This document shows, in pieces, positions 9,316-62,980 of a DNA stretch of 64,000 nt (the first letter of the stretch is position 1; every line of letters begins with the position of its first letter). The position numbers and the translations under genes are program-made. Origin of the DNA: Bacteroidales bacterium. GTDB taxonomy: Bacteria; Bacteroidota; Bacteroidia; Bacteroidales; UBA12077. The stretch covers positions 51-64,050 of the forward strand of contig JAGXLL010000011.1 in assembly GCA_018334675.1 (NCBI GenBank), read 5' to 3'. The notes beneath the pieces are model-generated. The model was given only the letters and a program-made list of their open reading frames with translations, searched no databases and had not been told where the DNA came from.

Positions 9316-9390
9316 CGGGATGTAGCTCAGTCCGGTTAGAGTACCCGTCTGGGGGGCGGGGGGTCGCGAGTTCAAATCTCGCCATCCCGA
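9316..9390 (+). tRNA. tRNA-Pro (anticodon GGG)
   Basis: Hand-folded cloverleaf. Acceptor CGGGATG/CATCCCG, D-arm GCTC..GAGT, anticodon stem CCCGT/GCGGG with loop CTGGGGG, T-arm GCGAG TTCAAAT CTCGC, discriminator A. No encoded CCA. Confidence 0.93.
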
Positions 9391-23687: not shown

Positions 23688-24074
23688 TCAGATCATTTTG
23701 GTGAGGTAGTTACCTAAAAATACAGCCATTATACCTATGAAGATACTCAATCCGGTGTAAAAAGCAAAATGAAAAAAATCGCCGTCGCGCAGCAAAGCCA
23801 CGTTCTCATTGATAAAAGTTGAAAAAGTGGTAAAGCTCCCGCAGAAACCAACAGTTAAAAACAACCGCCATTCCGGAGTTAACAGGTTTTCCTTAACTGA
23901 AAGCCCGTAAAGAAAACCAATGAAAAGACTTCCCATCATATTAACGATAAATGTGCCATAGGGAAAAGCGGACAGGGCCATGTTCTGAATGAGCCTGGAT
24001 AGTAAAAAACGCGAAACACTACCCAAAAACCCGCCGGTTCCGATGATCAATAACAGACGCCACATAAAATGCAC
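23688..24074 (-). CDS. crcB: Fluoride efflux channel CrcB
   Basis: 128 aa with 4 TM. GGFLGSVSRF and GFCGSFTTFSTF motifs. Confidence 0.92.
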   Translation of the reverse strand: MHFMWRLLLIIGTGGFLGSVSRFLLSRLIQNMALSAFPYGTFIVNMMGSLFIGFLYGLSVKENLLTPEWRLFLTVGFCGSFTTFSTFINENVALLRDGDFFHFAFYTGLSIFIGIMAVFLGNYLTKMI

Positions 24075-24098
24075 TTTCGTTGATTACGTATAAAACAT

Positions 24099-24148
24099 GC
24101 AGGAGTCATCAGCATTTAAGGCAGTTAAAGGTGAACCCCATCACCTGA
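24099..24148 (-). promoter_or_regulatory. Fluoride riboswitch (crcB RNA motif)
   Basis: The minus strand reads AGGUGAUGGGGUUCACCUUUAACUGCCUUAAAUGCUGAUGACUCCUGC. This gives P1 AGGUG/CACCU, a conserved GAUGGnGUUC core, an AAC linker and CUGAUGACUCC pseudoknot partner. It lies ~25 nt upstream of the crcB start. Confidence 0.85.
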
Positions 24149-24412
24149 GGCTCAAAAATAGTAAAAACCAGCGAGAATCAAACCTTGATTGCCCCGGATG
24201 TTTTTCGTACCTGCATCATGAAAACAGGTTCTTCCGGCAAATGTGTAGGTGAAATGTGAAAATAAACTGGAAGTCACAGGTCCGGGAGCTTCCCCTCCAT
24301 CCATAGACCCTGGCGTAAATTTACAACCGCCCACAGGAAATTTCTGGATGAAAAGATTGACATCTCAGGTATTCTTTGATAACTTAATGCTGCGACATAA
24401 AAACCGAGAATT

Positions 24413-29322: not shown

Positions 29323-29419
29323 ATTATGAAACCCACATGCACGATCTTACACAACAAGGACATGATTAAGCATGGGGGTTACATATGACCATAATAAATA
29401 AAAAGATAATCATATGAAA
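29323..29419 (+). promoter_or_regulatory. Conserved leader element copy A, containing a 20-codon uORF (29326-29388) and a hairpin over the main start codon
   Basis: 97 nt nearly identical to 55226-55322. The uORF encodes MKPTCTILHNKDMIKHGGYI. CATATGA (29382-29388) and TCATATG (29410-29416) form an inverted repeat that includes the uORF stop and the main ATG. Confidence 0.6.
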
Positions 29420-32400
29420 CATCAGCATGTTGTAGGCTATCGATTCCTTCTGCTCCTTGTATGGGCTATTTTTAGTGTATTAAAAACAAATGCTCAGGAT
29501 AACCCGGTAAGCATATCGGTACAGGTCATTCCTCCTTATTCGCCTTATTTTTCAGATTATATTGGCGAGAGCGGGAATATTACTTCCGAGTACAATGACT
29601 TGATCATGGTCACCCTCCAAAACACCGATATGAGCAACAGTTATCAGTTAAAGCTCATACCAACAATTTCATCCAACACGAATGTTTCAGTGGAAGTTCA
29701 GCCCGGCTTCACTCCCACCCGTCCGATCAGCCTGGCACCAGGAGAGACGAGGGTCCTCAACATGTCTGATTTAAAAGGCTATAATTCCAACCTCAACAAC
29801 AACCACATAGCCTATTCAGGGGTAAGCTACAACGAACTGGTGCAAACCGGGGTTCTACCTGAAGGCAATTATACGGTATGTATACAGGCCTATGACTATA
29901 ACACCTCCACACCTTTATCAAACAGTGAGCCGGGAGGCTGCAGCGCCGGCTTCTTGGTCTCTCATCCTGATCCACCGCAAATCACCTTTCCCGTGAACGG
30001 GTCGGAGATACTGGCGGGGGATCCACAAAACCTTCAGTTCAGCTGGACACCCCCGGCCGGCGGATCCGGTAATTATCAATACAACGTGCGTATTGTGGAG
30101 TTATCCGGCACCCAGCTGGATCCGTATTTCGTGATGAACAACAGCAACTATGCCTTTTACAGGGAGCAGGGTTTGATGGTACCTTCCCTGTTATATGACA
30201 TGAGCAAACCCACCCTGGAGCCTGGTAATACTTATGCTGTAAGGGTAACGGCCAATGATCCGCAGAGCCAGACGATGATCAAGAACCAGGGTCAGAGCGA
30301 GATACATGTATTCCGTGTACAGCAGGACACCGCTTTGTTGGCCGACACCACCTCCGAAGAGACAGCAGAGGAACAGCCAGCTTTTGCTTGCGGGGGAGAT
30401 TGTGATTTTGACCTCTCGGGCGTTGACCGCACGCCGGTTACCACTTTCCAAACCGGCGACATCATAAAAGTGGGCCATTATGAGGTACAGATCACAGGCG
30501 GCAACTGGTCGGGCGATCAGCTTACGGGAGAAGGAAAGATCCTGGCCACCGACTACATCCCTGTGGCTGTGAATGCCGATCTGATCAACCTGCAAATCAA
30601 TTCAAACGGCCGTGCCTTCAATGGCAAGGTGCAAGCTCAAGCCGGCAACACCAACCTTTTCAATCAAAGCATGCTTTCCGACATGGCCGGTCAGATCAAC
30701 CTCCCTCAAACGGATCCTTCCATCCTGTTCAACCAACTGAGTGATCCGGGCAGGCTACTGGCCAATCTTCAAAATGAAGCCACCATGGATCTGCCGTTGG
30801 GTATTGGGGCACCCGGCGACTACTATACGGTGGCTCTGGTGGGCATGGTGCTCAAACCTGAGAAAGCTACCATCAACACAGCCGCTATGATGGCGGCACC
30901 CGAAGAACAAAATAAATACCTGGCTTTTGGCGCCAAGAATGTGTGCATCAATCCCTCCGGTCTGGCAGCTTCTGATTCGATCCAAATGTCGCTGTTGGAG
31001 GATGTGAACATTCGGTTCTCCGATGATGTAAGCATGAAGCTTTCCACAACAGCCGGCAACGCCAGCACCTATGCAACAGCAGGATGTGAAGGCTTTGGCC
31101 GGGTATATGCTCAGGGCGATCTGATCATGTCGCCGGAAGTAATACGATATGAGAATCCTGATGGAACACAAAACACCCAGGATACGGTTAAGCTCAGCTT
31201 TGCCACCTCGTTTTCAGACTGGTCCGATTGGTTGATCGCCGCCAACCTCTTCGATGAGAACCGGCGCTATCAGTTCCCCGAGATGGAAGATTACAGCTTC
31301 CGGATTCAGCAAATGGTGCTGGATCACAGCGACCTGCGCAACGACCCCTCCCTGGTATTCCCCGACCAATATGCCTCGGCCGACCGCAATGCAACATGGA
31401 AAGGTCTGTACATCAAAGCCTTTAATATGATGATGCCCCGTTTCATCGACAAGAACGATGATCAACGCATCGAACTAACCGGTCGCAACATTCTGATCGA
31501 TCAGCATGGGGTTTCCACTTTCATCGAAGCCAACAACGTGCTTACTCAAAATGAAGGCAGACTGGGCGACTGGGCCTTCTCCATGGACTATCTGGCACTG
31601 GAGTTGGTAGCCAGCAGGCTGGACTCGGCCTCTATGAAAGGAGAGCTGCTGATGCCAATCTCCGATTCCAGCTTCAGCTATACCACTCATATGAGTTACC
31701 TCAACAGCCGGCTGGACTATGATTTCAATTTGGTTACCGCCGACGTGATCAATGTGCCCATGTGGTATGCGCAAATGGACCTGTATGAATCTTCCAGGCT
31801 GGATCTGACGATCAACACCAACAATGAGGTGACGATCCAGGCCATCCTCAACGGAAAACTTACCCTGGACAGTGAAGTCGGCGATTTCGACCAGGTGAAG
31901 ATCGGCGGTCTGGAGTTTGAGCAACTGGTCCTTCGCAATAAACCCCAATATATCAGAATGGACGGGGCCATGGCATTGGATGCCTCGGCCTCACCATCCC
32001 TGATGGGCTTTGGACTGAATCTGGGAGGCAACGGATCGGGATCCAACTCCGAATCCGGGGCTCTAAACGGTAGCCTGGACATTGGCCTGGATGAAGTGAG
32101 TTCCCGACGCACAGCCCTTTTCATGGATATGGGAATAAACTTCACCGGAAAGGGGGAGAGCAATTCGCTCTCAGGCAATACACGAATCAGCCTCGAAGCC
32201 CGCTATAATCCTCAACAGGTGAAATGGGAAAACGCCTCGGCTTCCATCGAACAAATTGAACTCGATGCCAACATGGGGATTATGGACATCTATGGGATGA
32301 TCCGGTTCTTTAAGGACAACCCGGTCTATGGAAAAGGTTTCCAGGGTACGCTTAACAGCCGGTTCTTAGAAACCATCAACGTGGATGTGAATGGACTGTT

Positions 32401-35356
32401 CGGTTCGGTAGACGACTACCGCTACTTCTATGTAGACGGCAAAGCCTCTTTTGGAGTCGGCGGCCTGGGTTTCTTCGGCCTCGGCATGTATGGCTTCGGC
32501 GGAGGTCTGGCCTACAATATGGAAAATACGTCCCTGCCCACTACCGACGACATCGCCCAAAACACATCAGGCGTACAGTCCGATTATGAACCCAAAGAAG
32601 GATCCTTGGCACTGAAGGCCACAGTAATGATGGGCCTCCAGGGTGATCCTAAGCCCTGGAACTCCGATGTGACCTTTGAAGTAGGATGGAACAATCAAAG
32701 CGGGCTGACCCGAATCGATATCGGTGGCGACTCCTATTTCATGCAGGAGCTGGCCGACCGGTCCAACCCCAAATTCAAAGGGACCCTGGACATGACCTAC
32801 AACTTTAACCAACAGCGGTTCATGGCAGCCGCCCAGACCGACATCCGTATACCTGCGCAGGATCCCAACATAACAGGAAATATGCCGGCCAACTTCCTGT
32901 TCGATTTTCAGCGGGGAGGAGGCCTGAGTGAGTGGTACATCAAATTTGGCGAACCCAGCGACCGCATCATCACCCATGTTGCCATCACCGAGGATATCTC
33001 CTTCACCAACGGCTCCTATTTCATGACCGGCTCGAACATTCCGGGCATGCCGCCTCCGCCACCCGCTATACTCCAGGAACTCGACATCAGCCAATCCAGT
33101 CAGCTGGCCCGACCCAATAACCATGCCATTGAAGCGGGAGCAGGTTTTGCCCACGGCCTCAAACTCGACTTCGAGCTGAACGAGATGGATGCAGTGATCT
33201 GCAACATCGACGCCCGTCTGATAGCTGGCTATGATATATCTGTCATGGACTGGTCGAGAGAAGGCATCCTGTGCAACGGCCGTTCAGAGTTTGGCGTGAA
33301 TGACTGGTATGCCAAAGGCCAGCTCTACTTCCTGGCCAGCGCACATTTCTATGGCAAAGGACCGAAGGAGATGACCTATTTCAGAACCTCGCTGGCCGCA
33401 CTGGCACAAGGAGGGCTGCCCAATCCCACCGGTGTGCGCGGCAAGGTACAGGCTACCTTCGACGTGGGCTGGAAAACCTGGAAACCTTCCAAAGAATTCT
33501 ACATCGGAGAGATATGTGAGATGTCCATTCCGGAAGATGCCGAGCCGGATATCGAAAATCCATACCAGGACGCCCAGTTCATCTCCAGGGTGAGCCCCGA
33601 CCAGGGAGGGGACAATATATCACCTATTGTAGTCCCTGAAGTCGAATTCAACTACCCGGTGGAAAAAATCAAAAATTTCACTTTCCCGGATGGAATGGGC
33701 GGAACAGTCAGCAAAACCTATAAGATCGGGTATGATCTCTACATCCGCGAAAACGGTTCTTCCAACCGCATCGACCTGAGCTCGGCTCCTTCCGGCAACA
33801 ACAGAGAACTGGAGATCACCATGAACGAACAATTGAAGCCGGAAACGGCCTATGAGATCGCAGCGGAAGCCACCCTCCTTCAAAAATCCGGGAACAACTG
33901 GAATGAAGTACGTGAAGGCAACCGCATCGTTCACGAGAAAGTCTCCAACACTTTCATAACCGGTAAGAAAGAGAAATTCAGTGACATCGATATAGCAGAA
34001 ATGACGCCGGTGAAACGGCAACGATACTTTAAAAAAGGAGACCATCCACAGGGATTGATCCGTTTCCGCACGAACATGGATGGATTCTTCAATCAGTATT
34101 CCGGTAAGCAGATTCAGGTGAAGTTCACTTCCCTCGATGAATCCGACGAGCATGTGGTGGATGCCAGCCTCTACAGCGACCGGCTCACATACCCCATGCC
34201 CGATCTGAATAAGGAAACCATCTACAGCGTTAAGATCCTTGCAGTAGACAGGGAGGAAGAAAGTTCAACATCTTCCGGCTATGGATGGTTCGGCAACAAC
34301 GGGTTTGCATTTTCTGTGCTGAACAATTCCGGCTCCAGCCAATCAGGTAGTTCGCAAAGCGGTTCCGGAAGCACCCAATCCGGAGGCTTCTCCACCGGCG
34401 TTCAAAGCACCCAATACAATTTTAACACCAACGCCACGGCCGCCGATGACCTGGAGCTGGACCCCACTGTTTTCGCTCCGGTGCTCTATGAATATCACTT
34501 CCGCACCAGTATGTTCAACACCCTGGGTGAGAAACTCAACAGCCTGCAGGATGCTGAAGTGTCCCTGGCCTATCAGAATGTGGGAGCTGAGACCGCTAAG
34601 AAGCTTACGATACGTCTTCAGGGCCCCGAGCGCTTTGAGGGATACCTCCAGAATCAAAACAATGAACTGGAATTTGAAGAGGTGACATATCGCCTCGAGC
34701 ACAACAACGGTGTAGAGGACGACTTTTTACCTGACTGGTACCTCAATAACGTGAATTATACTGTAAACAGCAGCCAATCCTGGACTGAAAAGGTTACCTA
34801 TCAGGTGCTCCGGCAAACAACCCCGTATGAAGCCTTTGGTCAGGACCCCTACCAGTTGAAAGGTTACTGGCAGGGAAGCGGCATATTGCCATCGTATTTT
34901 GACGGACCTCTTAGTGACCGCAACATCCAATACGGATGGGAACCCGACTACTCCAACTCCGGTAACTCCACGGGTTACGGATACCATACATCCTCCAACA
35001 CGCAGAACATCAATTTCAGTGCGAGCGGCACATTCGTGAATGCCAACGACCTGTCCCTGGGCAGCGATGCATATGACGCCTCCGAACTGACCACTGTGAT
35101 GGCTGTGGAAGTGACACTGGAACGTAAGATCCTGCGCGAATTCCAGAATGAAACGGTCCCGGCCGTGGAAGTGGCCAAACAATATGAAACAGGAGGTCCC
35201 GGTCAACCGGGTGGGGCACCTGGCACGAGTGGTGGCATGAGCACCACAGACCTGGAAAGCGCCCAATACCTATCCATGCCCAATGGCAATTACCAGATCC
35301 GGCTACGTATGACCGAAGGCAACACGTTAACTAAAACCGTCTACTTCAACTTTTAA
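29414..35356 (+). CDS. Giant (1980 aa) secreted beta-rich protein of unknown function
   Basis: Uninterrupted 5.9-kb ORF. Signal peptide ...VWAIFSVLKTNAQ, two N-terminal beta-sandwich-like modules, a Gly-zipper-like stretch, a PPPPP hinge and an S/G/Q linker. No catalytic motif recognised. Confidence 0.85.
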   Translation: MKHQHVVGYRFLLLLVWAIFSVLKTNAQDNPVSISVQVIPPYSPYFSDYIGESGNITSEYNDLIMVTLQNTDMSNSYQLKLIPTISSNTNVSVEVQPGFTPTRPISLAPGETRVLNMSDLKGYNSNLNNNHIAYSGVSYNELVQTGVLPEGNYTVCIQAYDYNTSTPLSNSEPGGCSAGFLVSHPDPPQITFPVNGSEILAGDPQNLQFSWTPPAGGSGNYQYNVRIVELSGTQLDPYFVMNNSNYAFYREQGLMVPSLLYDMSKPTLEPGNTYAVRVTANDPQSQTMIKNQGQSEIHVFRVQQDTALLADTTSEETAEEQPAFACGGDCDFDLSGVDRTPVTTFQTGDIIKVGHYEVQITGGNWSGDQLTGEGKILATDYIPVAVNADLINLQINSNGRAFNGKVQAQAGNTNLFNQSMLSDMAGQINLPQTDPSILFNQLSDPGRLLANLQNEATMDLPLGIGAPGDYYTVALVGMVLKPEKATINTAAMMAAPEEQNKYLAFGAKNVCINPSGLAASDSIQMSLLEDVNIRFSDDVSMKLSTTAGNASTYATAGCEGFGRVYAQGDLIMSPEVIRYENPDGTQNTQDTVKLSFATSFSDWSDWLIAANLFDENRRYQFPEMEDYSFRIQQMVLDHSDLRNDPSLVFPDQYASADRNATWKGLYIKAFNMMMPRFIDKNDDQRIELTGRNILIDQHGVSTFIEANNVLTQNEGRLGDWAFSMDYLALELVASRLDSASMKGELLMPISDSSFSYTTHMSYLNSRLDYDFNLVTADVINVPMWYAQMDLYESSRLDLTINTNNEVTIQAILNGKLTLDSEVGDFDQVKIGGLEFEQLVLRNKPQYIRMDGAMALDASASPSLMGFGLNLGGNGSGSNSESGALNGSLDIGLDEVSSRRTALFMDMGINFTGKGESNSLSGNTRISLEARYNPQQVKWENASASIEQIELDANMGIMDIYGMIRFFKDNPVYGKGFQGTLNSRFLETINVDVNGLFGSVDDYRYFYVDGKASFGVGGLGFFGLGMYGFGGGLAYNMENTSLPTTDDIAQNTSGVQSDYEPKEGSLALKATVMMGLQGDPKPWNSDVTFEVGWNNQSGLTRIDIGGDSYFMQELADRSNPKFKGTLDMTYNFNQQRFMAAAQTDIRIPAQDPNITGNMPANFLFDFQRGGGLSEWYIKFGEPSDRIITHVAITEDISFTNGSYFMTGSNIPGMPPPPPAILQELDISQSSQLARPNNHAIEAGAGFAHGLKLDFELNEMDAVICNIDARLIAGYDISVMDWSREGILCNGRSEFGVNDWYAKGQLYFLASAHFYGKGPKEMTYFRTSLAALAQGGLPNPTGVRGKVQATFDVGWKTWKPSKEFYIGEICEMSIPEDAEPDIENPYQDAQFISRVSPDQGGDNISPIVVPEVEFNYPVEKIKNFTFPDGMGGTVSKTYKIGYDLYIRENGSSNRIDLSSAPSGNNRELEITMNEQLKPETAYEIAAEATLLQKSGNNWNEVREGNRIVHEKVSNTFITGKKEKFSDIDIAEMTPVKRQRYFKKGDHPQGLIRFRTNMDGFFNQYSGKQIQVKFTSLDESDEHVVDASLYSDRLTYPMPDLNKETIYSVKILAVDREEESSTSSGYGWFGNNGFAFSVLNNSGSSQSGSSQSGSGSTQSGGFSTGVQSTQYNFNTNATAADDLELDPTVFAPVLYEYHFRTSMFNTLGEKLNSLQDAEVSLAYQNVGAETAKKLTIRLQGPERFEGYLQNQNNELEFEEVTYRLEHNNGVEDDFLPDWYLNNVNYTVNSSQSWTEKVTYQVLRQTTPYEAFGQDPYQLKGYWQGSGILPSYFDGPLSDRNIQYGWEPDYSNSGNSTGYGYHTSSNTQNINFSASGTFVNANDLSLGSDAYDASELTTVMAVEVTLERKILREFQNETVPAVEVAKQYETGGPGQPGGAPGTSGGMSTTDLESAQYLSMPNGNYQIRLRMTEGNTLTKTVYFNF

Positions 35357-35368
35357 AAACATTCAACC

Positions 35369-37423
35369 ATGAAATATTTCATAATAGGCTCGATGATCAT
35401 GCTGATGAGCATTACCGCTTATGCACAACAGAGCAACAGCAGCTTCCGGGTATTTTCAAAATACCAAAACGGCCAGGTGTATCTTAAGATACAGCCCATC
35501 GAAACCCAGGCCTGGTATGAAGCCCGGCAGAAAGGTTATGTCATTGAGAGAAAGGAACTGAATGGGGAAGAACCCTTTCAGGTAATCTCCTCCTCGCCTC
35601 TTGTTCCTTATTCACAGGAACGCATGAGGCAATTGGCACAGGAAGATCCATATACAGGTGAGCTCATGACCGTCCTTTACGATATGGAACAGATGGAAAA
35701 CCCTGATGAAATGAATTTTCCGCAGCTGGAAGAAAGGGCGAACAACCTGACAGGTACGATCTTCCTGCATTTCTATCTCTCATGCATGTCGCCTACCAGC
35801 AGCGAAGCTTCCGGTCTTCAGTTCACCGACATCGAAGCGCAGGCGAACCGGCAATATCAATACCGTGTGCGCATTAAAGGGGAAGAAGAAAATAGTGCGT
35901 CCGCGCGGGTAAACACATTCCGTGAAACGAGCCAGTCCCTGCCAATGGTCAACCTCAGGGGATTGGACAAAGCGGTTCAAATCAACTGGTACCATAAGGA
36001 TTATAGAGAGGTATACATTGGATATCGCATTGAAAAATCGGCCGACAGGAACAACTGGGGCTATCTGGGAGAGGCCCCCATCATCTATAACAAACGTGTA
36101 TCGAGTGAATCAGAAGATCTTGAACCGGGATATATTTACGAGGGAGACAGCCTGGAACGAAACTACAAGCCCTACTATTACCGGCTGACCGGCATCGACT
36201 TCTTCGGTCACCGCATGGGTCCCGGCCAGGTCTTTGAGGTTAGGGGCAGGGACCTTCAGGCTCCCGGCCAACCCCGGCAAGTTGAACTTGCCCATCAGGA
36301 TAACGGCAGCATGGAGCTCAGCTGGGATTATCCGGTCAACCAGACACCTGATCTGGCCGGTTTCTTTATTGGCCGGGGCCCGGAGCCTGAAGGTCCTTTC
36401 AAGCAAGTAAACCGGAATATGCTTCCCCCAAAATCCCGAAGCTACCAACTCGATCAACCCACTGAGCCCGGCATCACCTACTATGTTGTGACCGCCCTGG
36501 ATACAGCCGGCAACTATAAAAATTCCCTGACTGTATACGAATCGGTGCCCGATAACACACCTCCGGCTACACCTGATCGGCTGACAGGTTCAATCGACAC
36601 CAGTGGCGTGGTCACCCTTACCTGGCCGCGTGGAGAAGAAAACGACCTGATGGGTTACCGCCTCTACCGTTCCAACCAACCCGATCATGAATACGTACAG
36701 ATAACCCATGCCCCCCTGGCCGATACGATCCTGCGGGATACCATCACACTGCGAACACTAACCAAAGAAGTATTCTATAAAATAGTGGCGGTGGACAACA
36801 ATTATAACCACTCTCCCTTCTCTGCACCCGAGAAGGTGATAAGACCTGATGTGGTGCCCCCCGTGCCACCCCGTATCCGCAGCGTATCTCTGAATAACAA
36901 TACGGTGTCCGTTAAATGGGCAGCCAGCTCCAGCCGCGATGTGGAAGAAAATATCCTGCTCAGGCAGGACGGTGATGAATGGATGCAGGCAGGCACCTTT
37001 ACAGACCAAACCTCCTTCCGGGAGCCCCTTCCCGCCGACCGGCAACAAATAGTCTATGCCATGGTAGCCCGGGATAAAAGCGGCCTGTATTCCGATACAT
37101 CCGACACCCGTTCCGTTCGAAGCATAAAATTCTATAAACTGGAAACCGCCGCGGGCATTGAAGCCCGTTACAACCAGGAAGAGAAAAGGGTGCAGATCAA
37201 GTGGGACGGCCCGGGAGGAGACAATATATTCTATATCATATACAGAGGAACCCCGGAAAAAGGTCTCCGCATGTACCAAACTGCCGACAACGGAAAATCC
37301 AGTTTCTCAGACAACCGGCTGGTGCCGGGCAGGGAATACCAGTATGCCATCCGGGTAAAACGAGCCGATGGCAAAACCAGCCCGCTCAGCGACCGGGTAA
37401 CGGTACAGGTTAACAATCCATAA
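35369..37423 (+). CDS. Secreted protein with ~6 fibronectin-type-III-like repeats
   Basis: 684 aa. Signal peptide MKYFIIGSMIMLMSITAYAQQ. Recurrent FN3-style strands (YIGYRIEKS, GFFIGRG, MGYRLYRSN, FYIIYRG; YQYRVRI, YQYAIRV). Begins 12 nt after the giant ORF. Confidence 0.8.
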   Translation: MKYFIIGSMIMLMSITAYAQQSNSSFRVFSKYQNGQVYLKIQPIETQAWYEARQKGYVIERKELNGEEPFQVISSSPLVPYSQERMRQLAQEDPYTGELMTVLYDMEQMENPDEMNFPQLEERANNLTGTIFLHFYLSCMSPTSSEASGLQFTDIEAQANRQYQYRVRIKGEEENSASARVNTFRETSQSLPMVNLRGLDKAVQINWYHKDYREVYIGYRIEKSADRNNWGYLGEAPIIYNKRVSSESEDLEPGYIYEGDSLERNYKPYYYRLTGIDFFGHRMGPGQVFEVRGRDLQAPGQPRQVELAHQDNGSMELSWDYPVNQTPDLAGFFIGRGPEPEGPFKQVNRNMLPPKSRSYQLDQPTEPGITYYVVTALDTAGNYKNSLTVYESVPDNTPPATPDRLTGSIDTSGVVTLTWPRGEENDLMGYRLYRSNQPDHEYVQITHAPLADTILRDTITLRTLTKEVFYKIVAVDNNYNHSPFSAPEKVIRPDVVPPVPPRIRSVSLNNNTVSVKWAASSSRDVEENILLRQDGDEWMQAGTFTDQTSFREPLPADRQQIVYAMVARDKSGLYSDTSDTRSVRSIKFYKLETAAGIEARYNQEEKRVQIKWDGPGGDNIFYIIYRGTPEKGLRMYQTADNGKSSFSDNRLVPGREYQYAIRVKRADGKTSPLSDRVTVQVNNP

Positions 37424-37507
37424 TAAACCGTCCATCTCTATGGAAAAACACGAATGATAACAGCGACAAACAGGATAAACACCCAATTGATAAACCAAAA
37501 AAACAGG

Positions 37508-39178
37508 ATGATGCGTATATTGATACTACTATTGCTTGGGGCTTTGGCCATGCCCCACTTCACATCGGCACAGGATATCGGACAGGTAGGAAAAGGCGAT
37601 GCCCTGGATCTAACCGGATCACTAAGCTTCAGCACAGGCTACTACAATACCAGCCTGGGCTATAACCGGCAAGATCCTTTTGCCTACAGGCTTACAGGTA
37701 ACGCTGTGTTGTCGGTCTATAACTGGCAGATTCCCTTTACGCTCTCCTATGCCAATCAGCAGTTCAACTCCAGCAATCCCTTTCAACAGTTTGGCATATC
37801 ACCCCGTTACAAATGGATCAGGATGCATGCAGGCTACTCCAGCATGTCCTTTTCCCCCTACACCCTGAACAACCATACCTTCCTGGGTGGAGGCCTGGAA
37901 ATCACTCCCGGTAAGTTCCGCTTTAGCGTGATGTATGGCAGGCTACGTGAACGCCAGAGCATGGTTGAGAACCAACTGATGTCTTTCAGGCCGCCTGCCT
38001 ATAAACGATTGGGCTATGGCATGAAGATCGGCTATGGCACGGCACAGAACCACCTCGATCTGATTGTTTTCAAGGGCAAAGACGATACCACTTCCCTGTC
38101 CCCTTCTGCCAACCTACCCATTCTTCCTGCCGAAAACCTTGTAGTGGGTATATCTACACGGTTGCAGCTGCTGAAAAATGTGAGTTGGGAGGTACATGCC
38201 AGCGGAAGCGCTTATACACGTAACCTTTACTCCGATCCTTTGGCGGCCGAAGAGATCAACCTACCCAATTTCCTCACCAACTTATATGAACCCAGGTTCT
38301 CGAGCCGGTTCAATTATGCGGGTCACACCTCCCTGAACCTTCAGCTGGGCAACTTCGGCATCAAAGGAACCTACCGCAGGGTGCAGCCCGAATACAAGTC
38401 CATGGGCGTGTATTACCTGAAAAATGATGTGGAACAATATACCATCGCCCCGAACTTCCGGCTTTTCAAAGGCAGGGTAAGCCTCTCCGCCTCCCTGGGC
38501 ATCGAACAGGACAACCTGATGGACAACAAGGCGGTCACCACCCACCGGCAGATCGGATCGGCCAATCTGAACTGGAACACACGCGGGGCTTTCGGCATGA
38601 ACGTACAGTACTCCAACTATCAACTTGATCAAAATCCCGCCTTGCTGAATCTCAACGACACCACCAAAATAGCCCGGGTCAACAGGAACCTGTCGGTCAT
38701 GCCCCGGCTCATCTACCGGAAGGATCAAAAAACACACCAAATAACCCTCTATGCCAATAATCAAACTCTGACCGACAACAATCCCTTTACAGCAGAGATG
38801 ACCGAGACCGACTCCTATACCGGTAACCTGTCCTATGGATACCGCAACGCCAAAAGCGGATGGAACACGAAATCCAGCCTGAACTATACCCAATTGCAAA
38901 CCCCGGTCAATGAGATAGTACGCTATGGCATCACCGCAGGCATTGGCAAAAGCTTGTTTGACGACCGCCTGCAAACAAATCTCAGGACATCCTACAGCCG
39001 GAACAATGTGGACCAGAGCAATGCCGGCCACATCCTGAATTTTCACCTGAATCTGGGATACCGGGTACAATCAGGACATTCACTCAACCTGACGTTAAAG
39101 CTGACGGACAACGAAACCTCCAATGTCAATTTCACGGAAAACATGGCGAATCTGCAGTATACGTACCGGTTCAGATAA
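37508..39178 (+). CDS. Putative outer-membrane beta-barrel (porin-like) protein
   Basis: ATG at 37508 gives the signal peptide MMRILILLLLGALAMPHFTSAQ. Alternating-hydrophobic strand pattern throughout and a C-terminal ...LQYTYRF aromatic OMP signature. Confidence 0.72.
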   Translation: MMRILILLLLGALAMPHFTSAQDIGQVGKGDALDLTGSLSFSTGYYNTSLGYNRQDPFAYRLTGNAVLSVYNWQIPFTLSYANQQFNSSNPFQQFGISPRYKWIRMHAGYSSMSFSPYTLNNHTFLGGGLEITPGKFRFSVMYGRLRERQSMVENQLMSFRPPAYKRLGYGMKIGYGTAQNHLDLIVFKGKDDTTSLSPSANLPILPAENLVVGISTRLQLLKNVSWEVHASGSAYTRNLYSDPLAAEEINLPNFLTNLYEPRFSSRFNYAGHTSLNLQLGNFGIKGTYRRVQPEYKSMGVYYLKNDVEQYTIAPNFRLFKGRVSLSASLGIEQDNLMDNKAVTTHRQIGSANLNWNTRGAFGMNVQYSNYQLDQNPALLNLNDTTKIARVNRNLSVMPRLIYRKDQKTHQITLYANNQTLTDNNPFTAEMTETDSYTGNLSYGYRNAKSGWNTKSSLNYTQLQTPVNEIVRYGITAGIGKSLFDDRLQTNLRTSYSRNNVDQSNAGHILNFHLNLGYRVQSGHSLNLTLKLTDNETSNVNFTENMANLQYTYRFR

Positions 39179-53786: not shown

Positions 53787-54707
53787 TCATCGCAGCACCT
53801 TGCGTTGCTTCATATCATACCGCTGGCCTTTATGAAGGAAGTAGAACTGCTCCTGCCCTTCGGAAAGCTGATATACAGTATCCCGCTCAGCGGACCAGCG
53901 TGTGCCGTCGTAGATGGCCACATAATGCTCTCCTACAACCCGGAAAGTATCTTTTTCAACCACGATCCCGGTGTTCTCATCGAGTCCGATTCCCAGCAGC
54001 CCGGGTCTTTCCCGGAGCACTTCAAACATGTCGAAATGGCGGTTTCGGGCCAGAAGATGCTGATCCACCGCAATATTCTCAATGAAAGACAACCCTTTCT
54101 CATGATCTCCCATCATAATGGTGTTGCTTCGGGTGTCCCCCCGCACCAGGTACGACCCCTGAATAGTTGCTCCTGCTGATGAACCGGCTATCACACCCCC
54201 GCGGTCAAGCAAACGTTCTAATTCTCTATGAACCCTGGTATGAAGATAGGAATCGCTCAACCGCCATTGCCTTCCCCCCATAAACCATACCCCTGGGGCG
54301 TCTCTTATTGGCTGAACAAAAGCCTCACTGTTCGCTTCTTCCCGGTCGCGGGTATGCAGAATATGTACCTCCGTGAAACCATACCCGGCGAAACGTTCTT
54401 TCTGGCGTTTCATAAAATGATCATCCTGCATGCCTGCATCGCTGCGCGCTGTTGGAATGATTACCACCGGCTCCCCCGGCCCTCCCACCAGCTCTTGAAA
54501 CATGGGAAGAAACAGGCTGTCGCTGGCGTTACCACCGATTAGCAATAAGGTTCCCCGCTCCGGTCCACGGGTTACCGGCCTTCCTTCTACAAGCCCCTGA
54601 TGTTCAGGCTGTACACCTTCAAAACTTTGACTCAGAGCTGGATAAATATTAAGCACAAGAGAAATTGTAAAGATCCATGTGCCTGTAATAAAAATCTTTC
54701 GCATCAT
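53787..54707 (-). CDS. S51-family peptidase (cyanophycinase-like, type 1 glutamine amidotransferase-like fold), secreted
   Basis: 306 aa. Signal peptide, LLLIGGNASD and nucleophile context IAGSSAGATIQG. Confidence 0.8.
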   Translation of the reverse strand: MMRKIFITGTWIFTISLVLNIYPALSQSFEGVQPEHQGLVEGRPVTRGPERGTLLLIGGNASDSLFLPMFQELVGGPGEPVVIIPTARSDAGMQDDHFMKRQKERFAGYGFTEVHILHTRDREEANSEAFVQPIRDAPGVWFMGGRQWRLSDSYLHTRVHRELERLLDRGGVIAGSSAGATIQGSYLVRGDTRSNTIMMGDHEKGLSFIENIAVDQHLLARNRHFDMFEVLRERPGLLGIGLDENTGIVVEKDTFRVVGEHYVAIYDGTRWSAERDTVYQLSEGQEQFYFLHKGQRYDMKQRKVLR

Positions 54708-55225
54708 ATGGAAATTCGTCTGTTTATTGTTTGATTTTCAAAGGTCAGATGGAACTTACCATTTGTAAATAACCAGGTTTGTGAGGAAGATATTGATTAT
54801 TTTCTCATGGACGTTTCATTTTTATATCTTATCAAGTGCCAAATCCCGGATGCATTAGTCAATCACTCTATAAACTGCAAGGGTGAGGGGTACCGATATC
54901 CGGGTCCTTACAAAAGTAGAAAAAATTCCCTGAACAAAAGGTTTGCTCATATATTAAGATCCTCGAATCAAGAATCCGATGAGGGAAAAACTTCGCCTGT
55001 ACCCACAACCCGGGTTGCTATTCATTATGTTTTCAGGATCTATCAACCTCCATCCCCCTTTTATAATGCCATAGAACTCGATGTCTATCAGCTACATATC
55101 ATAATTCCAGACTTCAAGGTACACTATTTAGACTCATTCAATATAATAGATTCGTTTTTATTCCATTCACGGATTTTTTTAATTTTATGCATTTGCTCGG
55201 AATTTGAACAGACGCAAAATCTGAT

Positions 55226-55322
55226 ATTATGAAACCCCCATCCAGTAATCTACACAACAAGGACATGTTTAAGCATGGGGGTTACATATGACCGTAATAA
55301 ATAAAAAGATAATCATATGAAA
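55226..55322 (+). promoter_or_regulatory. Conserved leader element copy B, containing a 20-codon uORF (55229-55291) and a hairpin over the main start codon
   Basis: Near-identical to 29323-29419. The uORF encodes MKPPSSNLHNKDMFKHGGYI. Perfect 9-bp stem AACCCCCAT/ATGGGGGTT and the CATATGA/TCATATG inverted repeat. Confidence 0.6.
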
Positions 55323-56237
55323 AGAAGAGACTTCATTAAAAAGAGTATAGGTGCGGGATTATTCACCGGATCCCTGCTTTCCATGGGTAGTTATGGTAAG
55401 GTTTTCGCCAACACGGTGAACAACAGCGCAGCCAATTATGATCTGGTGGCTATTAAAGGAGGCGAACCGGACAAGATGTTCGAAAAGGCAATGGAGGCCA
55501 TGGGTGGCATGAGCAAATATGTCAAACCCGGGCAGAAGGTAGTTGTCAAACCCAATATCGGATGGGATGTGGTTCCTGAAAAAGCGGCCAACACCAACCC
55601 CAAGCTGGTAAGTGCCATCATAAAGCAATGCTATGAGGCGGGTGCATCAAAAGTTTATGTATTTGATCATACCTGTGATGAATGGAGGAAGACTTACAAC
55701 AACAGCGGCATTGAGAGAGCGGCCAAAGATGCCGGGGCAACGGTAGCACCCGGGCATACCGAAAGCTATTACCAACCGGTAAGTATACCCCAGGGCAAAA
55801 CCCTCAAGGAAGCCAAAGAACATGAACTGATCCTGGAATCCGATGTCTTCATCAATGTGCCCATATTGAAGGATCACAACTCTGCCCGCATGACGATCGC
55901 CATGAAGAACCTGATGGGTGTTATCTGGGACCGCAGTTTCTGGCACCGCAACGGGCTGCACCAGTGTATCGCCGATTTTGCTTCCTATCGCCAGCCTGAC
56001 CTCAACATTGTGGATGCCTATCGGGTGATGCTCAGAAACGGGCCCAGAGGCGTTTCTGTCAATGACGTCACCACGATGAAGTATCAAATCATATCGGACG
56101 ACATTGTTGCTGCAGATGCTTCTTCTGCCAAGATATTCGGCTCCGACGAGCGGGTACCCCATATCAAGATGGGCGATGAGATGGGCTATGGCCAGGCCGA
56201 CCTGTCCAAGCTAAATATTGGAAGATTAAAGATGTGA
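55317..56237 (+). CDS. Tat-exported DUF362 domain protein
   Basis: 306 aa. Twin-arginine signal MKRRDFIKKSIGAGLF. DUF362-like core (VVVKPNIGW ... INVPILKDHN). Confidence 0.85.
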   Translation: MKRRDFIKKSIGAGLFTGSLLSMGSYGKVFANTVNNSAANYDLVAIKGGEPDKMFEKAMEAMGGMSKYVKPGQKVVVKPNIGWDVVPEKAANTNPKLVSAIIKQCYEAGASKVYVFDHTCDEWRKTYNNSGIERAAKDAGATVAPGHTESYYQPVSIPQGKTLKEAKEHELILESDVFINVPILKDHNSARMTIAMKNLMGVIWDRSFWHRNGLHQCIADFASYRQPDLNIVDAYRVMLRNGPRGVSVNDVTTMKYQIISDDIVAADASSAKIFGSDERVPHIKMGDEMGYGQADLSKLNIGRLKM

Positions 56238-56241
56238 GTGT

Positions 56242-57879
56242 ATGAAAAAATACAAGGTTTTAAAGAAGATCAGGGTCCTCATTTCGCTGGTTTTCCTGGT
56301 CTTGTTGGGAGGTTTTTTTCTTGATTTTTTAGGCACTTTCTCAACCGGGTTCATCACAGGTTTTGTTTTCCCGCAGTTTGTGCCCTCGCTACTCAAATTT
56401 TTCAACGTCTTCACCTGGGTGGCCACTGGCTTTATCGTGGTGCTGATCCTTACCCTTTTGTTCGGCAGGGTATATTGCTCTACCATCTGTCCGCTGGGTA
56501 TCATGCAGGATGTGATCAGCTGGTTAAGGCGCAGATTCCGGAAAAGGAAAAAACCTAACTACCATTATCTTAAAGCCTTGCATTGGTTGCGATATGGAAT
56601 AGTGGGCGCAACCCTGGCTTTTCTTGCCAGCGGCAGCGTCATCGTACTTTCCATCTTCGACCCTTACAGCACCTTCGGACGGATTGTATCCGATTTATTC
56701 CGCCCCCTGCTCACCCGGGGAAATAACCTGTTGTCGGGGATACTCAAAAATTTTGACATATACGGTCTGTACCATGTCGATTTACAACCCCTGCACATTG
56801 GTGTCATGGCGATACCTCTTGCATTCCTTATTGCGGTGGTATGGATGTCCCTTACAAGCGGCAGGCTTTACTGCAACACCGTTTGTCCTGTCGGCACATT
56901 CCTCGGGCTGGTGTCCAAATTATCTTTGTTTCAAATACGGTTAAATCCCAACAGCTGTACAAAATGCGGTATTTGTGAAAAAAGGTGCAAAGCCAACTGC
57001 ATCGACACCAAAAATATGCGCGTGGACTTTGACCGCTGTGTAGGTTGCTTCAACTGTCTTCAATCCTGTCCTTTCTCGGCAGCAGAATATAGTTTGAATC
57101 CGCTCTATAAAAAGCTGACTCTGCCGGAGCCATCCGCCTCCCCAATACCAAATACCTCTGCATCCGGCAAAGAAGGAGTTGGGGATAAAGCCAGCCACCA
57201 TAAAACAGATGTGGGAAAACGCAAGTTCCTGGCCGGCATAGCCCTGGCTTTTTTCAGTGTCACCAAATTATCAAAAGCCCAGGAGCTGGTCTCCTACAAC
57301 GCCACCACCCCGGTGAAACGGGAAAATCCGGTATCCCCCCCAGGAGCCGACTCCACCGACCGTTTCAATGATGCCTGCACTGCCTGCCATTTATGTGTCA
57401 ATGTATGCCCCACACAAGTATTGCAACCATCTTTGCTGGAATACGGATTAAGGGGACTGATGCAACCCCGCATGGATTATCATGCCGGTTTCTGCAATTA
57501 TGATTGTGTGGCTTGCACAGAAGTATGCCCGACCGGAGCTATTTTGCCCCTTCTGCTGGAGGATAAGAAAAGGGTTCAACTGGGCAAAGCCCAGTTTGTG
57601 AAGGAAAACTGCATTGTGGAAACCGAGGGTACCGATTGCGGATCCTGTTCAGAGCACTGTCCTACCAAGGCCGTGGATATGGTGGATTACAAAAATGGGC
57701 TCCGCATTCCCGAGGTAACCGAAGACATCTGCGTAGGATGCGGGGCCTGTGAATATGCCTGTCCCACCCACCCATACAAAGCCATATACGTGGAAGGCAA
57801 TCCGGTGCACTTGCAGGCTCAAAAACCCAAGCAGGAAAAGGTAAAAAGAGAGGAACCCGAGGAAGATTTCCCCTTCTGA
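56242..57879 (+). CDS. Membrane-bound polyferredoxin (NapH/MauN-like TM domain plus multiple 4Fe-4S clusters)
   Basis: 545 aa. TM segments with CSTICPLG and CNTVCPVG. Ferredoxin motifs CTKCGICEKRC, CVGCFNCLQSCP, CTACHLCVNVCP, CVACTEVCP, CGSCSEHCP and CVGCGACEYACP. Confidence 0.87.
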   Translation: MKKYKVLKKIRVLISLVFLVLLGGFFLDFLGTFSTGFITGFVFPQFVPSLLKFFNVFTWVATGFIVVLILTLLFGRVYCSTICPLGIMQDVISWLRRRFRKRKKPNYHYLKALHWLRYGIVGATLAFLASGSVIVLSIFDPYSTFGRIVSDLFRPLLTRGNNLLSGILKNFDIYGLYHVDLQPLHIGVMAIPLAFLIAVVWMSLTSGRLYCNTVCPVGTFLGLVSKLSLFQIRLNPNSCTKCGICEKRCKANCIDTKNMRVDFDRCVGCFNCLQSCPFSAAEYSLNPLYKKLTLPEPSASPIPNTSASGKEGVGDKASHHKTDVGKRKFLAGIALAFFSVTKLSKAQELVSYNATTPVKRENPVSPPGADSTDRFNDACTACHLCVNVCPTQVLQPSLLEYGLRGLMQPRMDYHAGFCNYDCVACTEVCPTGAILPLLLEDKKRVQLGKAQFVKENCIVETEGTDCGSCSEHCPTKAVDMVDYKNGLRIPEVTEDICVGCGACEYACPTHPYKAIYVEGNPVHLQAQKPKQEKVKREEPEEDFPF

Positions 57880-62757: not shown

Positions 62758-62863
62758 AGATTTTTGTTTTCTGTAACGAAAAAATTCGCTCCCTTATGAT
62801 GATTTACCGAAATAATATCGTTCCTGATACAGTTTGAAAATATTAATTTTGCATGTGAAACGT

Positions 62864-62916
62864 CCATGACAAAACAATCATTAATATCACAAAAGGAGAT
62901 GATTATTTTGTCATGG
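62864..62916. repeat. 18-bp inverted repeat in a divergent promoter region
   Basis: CCATGACAAAACAATCAT (62864-62881) and ATGATTATTTTGTCATGG (62899-62916). One mismatch, 17-nt spacer. Confidence 0.65.
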
Positions 62917-62980
62917 TAAGTTACACAAGGCCAAAACATTGAATTAAAAAATAAACTTGTGAAACAAAAATATTGTGATT

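Follow-up and report, generated by a model that had tools for sequence, protein, structure and literature searches.

The window analyzed here, a 64,000-nt stretch of a Bacteroidales contig, contains a two-gene redox operon (55317..57879, plus strand) that codes for a Tat-signal DUF362 protein (55317-56237) and a polyferredoxin (56242-57879). An exact look-up of the DUF362 protein gave no record. The operon is preceded by a leader, copy B, that occupies 55229..55322 on the plus strand, including the ATGAAA that flanks it at either end (55229-55234 and 55317-55322), and that matches the covariance model described below with 80 bits (E 2e-15). Copy B contains an upstream open reading frame (uORF; 55229..55291) of 20 codons plus TGA, which runs from the ATG at 55229-55231 to the stop at 55289-55291 and encodes the peptide MKPPSSNLHNKDMFKHGGYI. 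Two predicted helices shape the leader. The first, P1 (55233..55283), pairs AACCCCCAT (55233-55241) with ATGGGGGTT (55275-55283, uORF codons 16-19) through 9 bp without a mismatch, and this region folds with -12.5 kcal/mol. The second, P2 (55285..55319), pairs CATATGA (55285-55291) with TCATATG (55313-55319) through 7 bp across a 21-nt, A/U-rich loop (55292-55312) and folds with -4.0 kcal/mol; its 5' arm holds the uORF stop, and its 3' arm holds the main ATG (55317-55319).

A near-identical leader, copy A (29326..29419, plus strand; covariance-model match of 74 bits), has the same layout, with a uORF at 29326-29388, P1 at 29332-29340/29370-29377, P2 at 29382-29388/29410-29416, and the main ATG at 29414. 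P1 of copy A has one A.G mismatch and gains two extra pairs (CATGC/GCATG), for an energy of -15.5 kcal/mol, while P2 is at -4.0 kcal/mol as in copy B. The two copies have in common a 43-nt core, which is matched twice in the window (0 expected), and they differ at 2 positions in the 3' 65 nt and at 7 of the 18 nt in uORF codons 4-8; the repeat is far beyond chance. Downstream of copy A (29414..39178, plus strand) are genes for a 1980-aa protein (N-terminal TANFOR), a 684-aa FN3 (fibronectin type III) protein, and a 574-aa protein. The likeness of the 1980-aa N terminus (29414-29960) to the TANFOR domain is weak (TIGR02542; E 9e-9, below the cut-off), and this protein is nearly an orphan, with closest homologs of only 33-38% identity among 5.8 billion proteins.

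In its description of these two leaders, the initial annotation was accurate: the hairpins, the 20-codon uORF, the near-identical second copy, a P1 that is perfect in copy B and has one mismatch in copy A, the CATATGA/TCATATG pairing of uORF stop and main ATG around a 21-nt A-rich loop in both copies, and the genes downstream are all present as described. The fold prediction that it had proposed as a check also agrees, in that ViennaRNA places P1 and P2 in the minimum-free-energy fold of both copies. Relative to shuffled sequence, the z-scores are -4.6 for copy A and -1.7 for copy B, so that copy B, as a single sequence, folds no better than expected by chance.

A covariance model built from 50 type I sequences detected 93 elements in the collected loci, and it found four in the window, of which copies C and D are new. 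Copy C (54705..54819, minus strand; 39.6 bits, E 2e-6) is degenerate and type II-like, with a mini-uORF (ATG AAA CGT CCA TGA) and a P1 that is long and rich in A/T. It points away from copy B and lies upstream of a gene for a cyanophycinase-like S51 peptidase (54707..53787, minus strand). Copy C is full length in the window, but its 3' ATG is mutated to ACG; in a 96%-identical relative (L247, 1116-1200), only the 3' 29 nt of it remain (TTTGAAAATTAACAAATAAACACATGAAA), and after them comes an ORF of 5 codons, the stop of which overlaps the start of the peptidase gene (ATATGATG). This remnant, together with the mutated copy C, indicates that cassettes decay and undergo partial deletion. A mechanically listed 141-aa ORF (54807-55232) crosses copy C and the divergent promoter region in antisense and terminates at the ATGA of the copy B uORF; it has no Pfam match and is most likely not a gene. 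Copy D (62855..62964, plus strand; 35 bits, E 2e-5) is also type II-like, with 5' GTGAAAC, an 18-bp P1, and a P2 (CACAAG/CTTGTG) that differs from the consensus by three compensatory pairs. Its end lies 17 nt upstream of the GTG start of mutS2 (62981).

The DUF362 leader is one copy of a dispersed family of structured repeats of ~90-115 nt, comprising the four copies in the window and about 95 in ~45 uncultured Bacteroidales genomes. Nearly all copies end on the start codon of a real gene, their 3' ATG opening a long ORF in most cases, and these genes are functionally unrelated. A degenerate-pattern search of genome_contigs returned 77 sites, almost all in Bacteroidales/Rikenellaceae metagenome-assembled genomes and at most 9 per assembly, while the same pattern had 0 matches in 2.9 M viral contigs. 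An exact 29-base pattern from the window had 0 matches in genome_contigs; the GTDB representatives do not include this species. Of 80 loci that encode relatives of DUF362, just two (L012 and L051) have a similar leader, and the covariance model, when run on 648 kb of DUF362 loci from many phyla, found nothing beyond elements already known. One metagenome scan yielded two near copies, one before a Tat-signal Fe-S gene and the other an orphan without a 5' ATG. At L082 (2978-4197), a cassette of the window subtype with a GTG uORF start precedes the gene for a Tat-signal Fe-S protein that looks reductive dehalogenase-like by eye, for which Pfam gave TAT_signal and 4Fe-4S (Fer4) only; the leader on this second Tat redox enzyme probably reflects no more than chance, given MK(K/R) starts.

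The type I consensus reads TATGAAA-CCCACATG-(variable small hairpin)-ACACAAACAAGAATGAAAATA..-CATGTGGGTT-C-CATGTG-ACCTTTAAAATCAAAATTATTTA-CACATG-AAA. In the type II variant, the first helix is replaced by an 18-20-bp A/T-rich hairpin, and the uORF has 4 codons (MKQA*, MKRP*). Just after the 5' arm of P1, the elements at L099 (7412-7528), L158 (1600-1715), and L106 (1838-1952) have, in place of the small variable hairpin, an unrelated one that is rich in G+C (e.g., CCCGCCATGGCGGG), suggesting that a hairpin, rather than a given sequence, is required there. Cassettes can also lie in arrays: L091 (4480-5300, minus strand) contains three within 640 nt, two of them in tandem, interspersed with short tandem repeats (CCCACTAT three times, runs of CTTTAAAC, and CTCAATTAA four times), and partial cassettes of a similar kind are present in L119 and L134, from the same assembly. 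Tandem units have one ATGAAA in common.

Evidence for the two helices comes from comparing homologous elements. RNAalifold, run on a MAFFT alignment of 50 elements, returned exactly P1 and P2, with 97.4% of the helix cells paired. Cells that had changed on both sides numbered 21, compared to 4.2 +/- 1.7 in shuffles (reached in 0 of 500), and sliding the partner by 1 to 3 columns lowered the paired fraction to 17-55%. Covariation is present in P1, at its fourth variable pair (AU 30, UA 8, GC 3, CG 2) and at a second pair (CG 45, UA 3), and in P2 (GC 43, AU 5), whose arms are in near-perfect association across the 93 elements. The search pattern fixed part of the 3' side of the elements and not the 5' arm of P1; compensatory variants that are independent of the pattern are found in L167 (CCTCCATG/CATGGAGG), L249 (CCTGCAT/ATGCAGG and CATACG/CGTATG), and copy D (CACAAG/CTTGTG). 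This comparative evidence indicates that both hairpins are real and are maintained by compensatory changes. Mean fold energies are -15.6 kcal/mol for P1, which begins 4 nt downstream of the 5' AUG, and -4.9 kcal/mol for P2, which pairs the new AUG with an upstream CAUAUG/CAUGUG over a 21-nt A/U-rich loop. Among helix mismatches, 28 are G.U and 15 are A.C, an excess that is a weak hint of folding on the sense strand. For the mutually exclusive helices of a leader-peptide attenuator, a competing pairing is available between the 5' AUG and the CAU in the 5' arm of P2 (AUG-A-AAC/GUU-C-CAU); copy D, which changes all three sites together, is the only informative case. A pseudoknot or kissing interaction between loops 1 and 2 was rejected, as cognate loop pairs (-2.70 kcal/mol) and non-cognate pairs (-2.68 kcal/mol) score alike.

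How the cassette came to lie at a start codon can be read from filled and empty alleles of the DUF362 gene. The leader is missing from orthologs whose products are 97% (L246), 96% (L247 and L248), 86% (L252), and 79% (L254-L256) identical in amino acids to the window protein, and it is present in those of 84% (L249) and 83% (L250) identity, a patchy pattern that needs at least two gain or loss events. Upstream of the empty alleles, the sequence is homologous to that of the window up to the start codon. In the 96-97% identical orthologs, the 5' untranslated region (UTR) runs directly into ATGAAAAGAAGA, and in the window the same UTR leads to ATGAAA and then to 88 nt (55235-55322, missing from those orthologs) that end in a second ATGAAA. 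The junction thus reads ...gacgcaaaatctgatattATGAAA[88 nt]agaagagac in the window and ...gacgaaaaatctgaaattATGAAAagaagagac in L247 and L248. On the evidence of these alleles, the cassette is an insertion at the DUF362 start codon. Given the empty orthologs and the homologous UTR, the uORF begins at the old start codon of the DUF362 gene, which still has its native 5' UTR before it, and because the insert ends in a second ATGAAA that runs into codon 3, the DUF362 protein is unchanged.

A second gene, trpB, agrees. Two of its alleles are filled (L166 and L167), L168 and many others are empty, and, filled or empty, an upstream stop lies 6 nt before the (old) ATG and the length of the N terminus is kept. 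At copy A, the comparison meets a best homolog of the giant protein's N terminus that is only 38% identical. A scan with a 20-nt core, free of any 3' constraint, gave 40 matches, of which 37 end in ATGAAA, and this hexamer flanks nearly all copies whereas empty alleles hold a single ATGAAA. Exceptions to the ending in which ATGAAA is fused to the gene are copies C and D, L122 (7899-7991), and L165. Deviating 3' hexamers occur in copy C (ATGATG), L122 (ATGAGC), and L165 (ATGAAT), in all of which the 5' copy is still ATGAAA, and this retention argues against a plain target-site duplication.

The filled and empty alleles also bear on the proposal that a shared leader implies co-regulation of the redox and envelope operons, which is not supported. 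The two further copies in the window precede genes for a cyanophycinase-like peptidase and mutS2, and DUF362 orthologs at 97%, 96%, 86%, and 79% identity do without the leader. Moreover, 57 downstream proteins from other genomes matched 79 Pfam families, none more than twice; the genes encode, for example, fucosidases, FabI, FabG, KdpC, TonB-dependent receptors, peptidases, TrpB, and response regulators. Many of the downstream proteins have signal peptides, as expected for genes beginning MK. The cassette is a portable insertion and not a regulator specific to the redox and envelope operons.

A different feature is likely to be the real transcription factor site of the DUF362 operon: an imperfect palindrome at 55126-55144 (ATTTAGACTCATTCAATAT; consensus ATTTAGA-N5-TCTAAAT), ~170-190 nt upstream of the DUF362 start. 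Similar palindromes lie upstream of DUF362 operons in many Bacteroidales loci (L012, L013, L024, L027, L032, L247, L249, L250, L252, and L254), and L020 has a perfect one (ATTTAGATTAATTCTAAAT). A counterpart was sought upstream of copy A and is absent there, and so a transcription factor site common to both operons was rejected.

We surveyed the uORF in the 56 elements with a recognizable 5' start. The stop lies in the 5' arm of P2, as in the window, in 12/56; in the P2 loop in 13/56; overlapping the main ATG in 2/56; and more than 30 nt upstream of it in 23/56. In the remaining 6/56, which form one ortholog group, the uORF runs in frame into the gene without a stop. Together, 27/56 uORFs, including those of copies A and B, end within 30 nt of the main AUG. 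Although the 5' ATG is conserved, the frame, length, and stop position are not, with all three frames used and lengths of 4-32 codons, and conservation of the peptide is limited to MK(P/S)(T/A/S)C, whose codons consist of helix-forming bases. A conserved leader peptide was rejected on account of these varying frames and lengths, and the lack of a conserved frame argues that the uORF peptide is irrelevant. The in-frame group consists of orthologous lipoprotein genes (L092, L116, L120, L123, L124, and L152) in which the stop-free stretch from the 5' ATG to the gene has 32 codons, or 34 in L116 after a 6-nt indel; here, the cassette could be translated as an N-terminal extension before the lipoprotein signal peptide.

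The uORF AUG itself is very likely a true initiation site, a prediction that follows from its being the ancestral gene start with its native 5' UTR. In operons, the 5' AUG overlaps the stop of the upstream gene or follows it by 4-9 nt, and in L122 it forms an ATGA overlap with the stop of a 1054-codon ORF. P1 is much stronger than P2 and begins 4 nt after the uORF AUG, and it should therefore hinder rather than favor initiation there.

These findings support, in part and in a more general form, the mechanism put forward in the initial annotation, namely, a dedicated translational switch, common to both operons for their co-regulation, whereby the hairpin that holds the main AUG is melted by ribosomes that terminate on the uORF. 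What stands is that both hairpins, P2 included, covary; that the main start lies in the 3' arm of P2 throughout the family; that the uORF AUG is a credible start site; and that the uORF ends within 30 nt of the main AUG in nearly half of the surveyed elements, with its stop inside the 5' arm of P2 in copies A and B. What does not stand is the geometry as a family feature, since the stop position varies and falls in the 5' arm of P2 in so few elements. The uORF stops early in 23/56, has 4 codons in type II, and is fused in frame to the gene in 6 cases, and P1 should impede its initiation. The presence of four copies in the window and ~95 elsewhere before unrelated genes, the 96-97% identical orthologs without the leader, and the lack of the DUF362 palindrome upstream of copy A are likewise at odds with a switch built for two operons, which we regard as quite improbable.

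We lean toward the view that the dispersed start-codon cassette is a self-contained translation initiation module with a generic structural brake and is not operon specific. From its anatomy and its insertion, both of which are directly observed, we infer the following translational steps. P1 would restrain initiation at the old AUG. Ribosomes that do start there, by way of the native initiation region or through coupling to an upstream cistron, would unwind P1. If the short ORF ends within P2, as it does in copies A and B, these ribosomes would also unwind P2 and restart at the new AUG. Direct loading of ribosomes on the A/U-rich loop of the weak P2 may offer a second route. The net result would be a module akin to a bicistronic design, such that the gene stays expressed after the insertion and gains a structure-dependent brake. 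Bacteroidota do not use Shine-Dalgarno pairing in initiation. An inspection by eye of the sense strand of the element for a Bacteroidetes-type TAnnTTTG/TTTG promoter motif found none.

One observation that the translation module does not account for is the strong conservation of the loop sequences (ACACAAACAAGAAUGAAAAUA and UUUAAAAUCAAAAUUAUUUA). Conserved unpaired stretches, above all the CA-rich stretch ACACAA(A)CAAG(A/G)A of the P1 loop, could instead point to a riboregulator to which a protein, a small RNA, or a small molecule binds at the loops, placing the genes in a genome-wide posttranscriptional regulon. Loop variants are genome specific, and the start codon lies inside a helix, as such a regulator might have it; the similarity of copies within a genome would then reflect co-evolution with the trans-acting factor. 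Both this reading and its account of within-genome similarity seem improbable to us. The target genes lack a functional theme, the presence of the cassette varies among near-identical orthologs, elements differ greatly between genomes with 96% identical TrpB, and the loop-loop pseudoknot has no advantage in cognate pairs. Also, no Rfam family was matched even at E <= 10, where a search of 55100-55400 gave only a meaningless 14-bit miRNA match.

Similarity among copies follows genomes to a marked degree. Copies are 86.5% identical within genomes and 70.6% identical between them, and P1 loops are 76% identical within assemblies and 51% identical between them (each reached in 0/500 permutations). 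Between genomes with 96% identical TrpB, the orthologous trpB elements have diverged far more than the sequences that flank them. The likeness within assemblies and the divergent trpB elements together point to turnover, gene conversion, or repeated insertion.

A rival reading is a purely selfish, non-autonomous DNA element whose helices would form in single-strand DNA to serve excision and integration, with RNA folding only incidental. Clean filled and empty alleles, tandem arrays with a common ATGAAA, and concerted evolution within genomes are all in keeping with it, as is complementarity between internal sequence and the junctions: the 5' ATGAAAC is complementary to GTTCCAT (one mismatch), CATGTG is complementary to CACATG, and copy D changes all three sites together (GTG/CAC/GTG). 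A possible variant is that an HUH-type nuclease acts on the element, with the central GTTC-CATGTG as an internal guide to the ATGAAAC target and to the element's own CACATG end. However, the cassette has no terminal inverted repeats, its layout is unlike the two subterminal hairpins of IS200/IS605, and no transposase or autonomous copy was found in 1.5 Mb of sequence, nor were there any matches in viral contigs. Its orientation is always sense to the gene, its 3' end is almost always a predicted working start codon, and the 2:1 excess of G.U over A.C favors the sense strand. We consider a purely selfish origin unlikely. 5' halves that lack a 3' half would hint at an autonomous parent; in the 1.5 Mb, there were none except degenerate type II fragments, and no mobilization machinery or linked gene was found for the cassette.

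The complementarity of GTTC-CATGTG to both junctions may reflect either an RNA switch or a guide in DNA like those of single-strand transposons. This leaves room for a more tentative proposal that combines mobility with function, in which a non-autonomous mobile element, of a class not described before, homes to ATGAAA starts, perhaps via an internal guide that pairs with the target and with the element's own end, and the replacement start codon and folded module make its insertions tolerated; we hold this to be possible, if on the doubtful side. If it is true, the same brake or switch would sit on dozens to hundreds of unrelated genes per Bacteroidota genome.

Comparison with known systems helps to place the cassette. 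In translationally coupled leader cistrons and bicistronic designs, a short upstream ORF likewise ends near or over the real start, and translation of the leader can open structure around the second start. About half of the cassettes (27/56) have a leader ORF that ends at or near the main start, while 23/56 and the type II elements do not. The cassette is further unlike these designs in that its leader cistron has no Shine-Dalgarno sequence, the first AUG is immediately followed by a stable helix, the ORF often has just 4-12 codons or is fused in frame, and the whole is a dispersed repeat and not a feature of a single gene. Leader-peptide attenuators of the trp, erm, and cat kinds have a conserved peptide or regulatory codons in a fixed frame, and riboswitches have a conserved aptamer before genes of coherent function; the cassette lacks the former, and its 79 Pfam families and variable presence among 96-97% identical orthologs differ from the latter. 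RNA thermometers such as fourU and ROSE likewise have a weak helix at the AUG (~-4 to -5 kcal/mol) that could melt with temperature or ribosomes, but the cassette lacks a Shine-Dalgarno sequence that could be masked, has an upstream AUG and a second, strong helix, is multicopy, and shows no link to heat shock or virulence genes. Programmed translational bypass, as in T4 gene 60 and the mitochondrial byp elements, calls for matching take-off and landing codons, a stop immediately behind the take-off codon, and a landing site that lacks a start codon. The cassette has ATGAAA as the match at either end, yet its 5' AAA is not followed by a stop, and bypass is unlikely because an AUG is present where ribosomes would land.

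As a genomic object, the cassette is like ERIC/IRU, the Correia elements of Neisseria, the pneumococcal BOX and RUP elements, and the Rickettsia palindromic elements, all of which are ~100 nt, multicopy, and hairpin forming, vary in presence among strains, and lie inside transcripts; the Rickettsia elements also lie inside ORFs, as in the in-frame lipoprotein group. Those repeats are palindromic overall or bounded by terminal inverted repeats, and they are found in either orientation without favoring start codons, whereas the cassette is always in sense orientation and flanked by ATGAAA, and its last six bases are a start codon plus a Lys codon. REP/BIME sequences are imperfect palindromes of 20-40 nt, mostly downstream of genes and in both orientations, unlike a sense-oriented cassette of 90-115 nt at gene starts. 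MITEs are similarly small, non-coding, multicopy, and variable in presence, as is the cassette, but its two ends (CCCNCATG... and ...TTTACAC or ...AATCAT) do not form an inverted repeat. With IS200/IS605, PATEs, and REP/RAYT, the cassette has in common strand-specific hairpins, a lack of terminal inverted repeats, insertion beside a short specific sequence, and internal sequence complementary to its junctions, much as guides pair with cleavage sites. It differs in that P1 spans half of the element, the P2 loop is 21 nt, and there is no subterminal hairpin for each end; in its 6-nt flanking repeat, since IS200/IS605 make no target duplication; and in that no TnpA or RAYT gene is linked to it and no split or autonomous copies were seen in 1.5 Mb. 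By analogy, therefore, the cassette most resembles coupled leader cistrons in function and the ERIC, Correia, and Rickettsia repeats as a genomic object, and it lacks defining features of each system that we compared.

If our reading is correct, hundreds of genes in a widespread uncultured Bacteroidales group carry an inserted, folded leader in which the original start codon has become a uORF start and the cassette supplies the replacement. This would amount to a natural experiment on start choice, structure, and re-initiation by ribosomes that work without Shine-Dalgarno pairing, and it would point to an insertion mechanism of unusual target precision, the start codon, that has not been described before. 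We find a repeat family on start codons more interesting than the co-regulation first proposed. In practical terms, cassette repeats will mislead gene callers and regulon predictions, as a shared leader does not amount to shared regulation, and the cassette may serve as a portable translation part for Bacteroidota.

The ~90-nt start-codon repeat is apparently undescribed until now; a full-text literature search returned no description of such an element, which is weak negative evidence. At gathering thresholds, Rfam 15 finds in the window only a tRNA and a fluoride riboswitch, both of which lie elsewhere. The fluoride riboswitch (RF01734, 54.7 bits) is at 24093-24154 on the minus strand, upstream of small minus-strand ORFs at 23688-24074 and below, and the tRNA gene (RF00005, 62.4 bits) is at 9316-9390.
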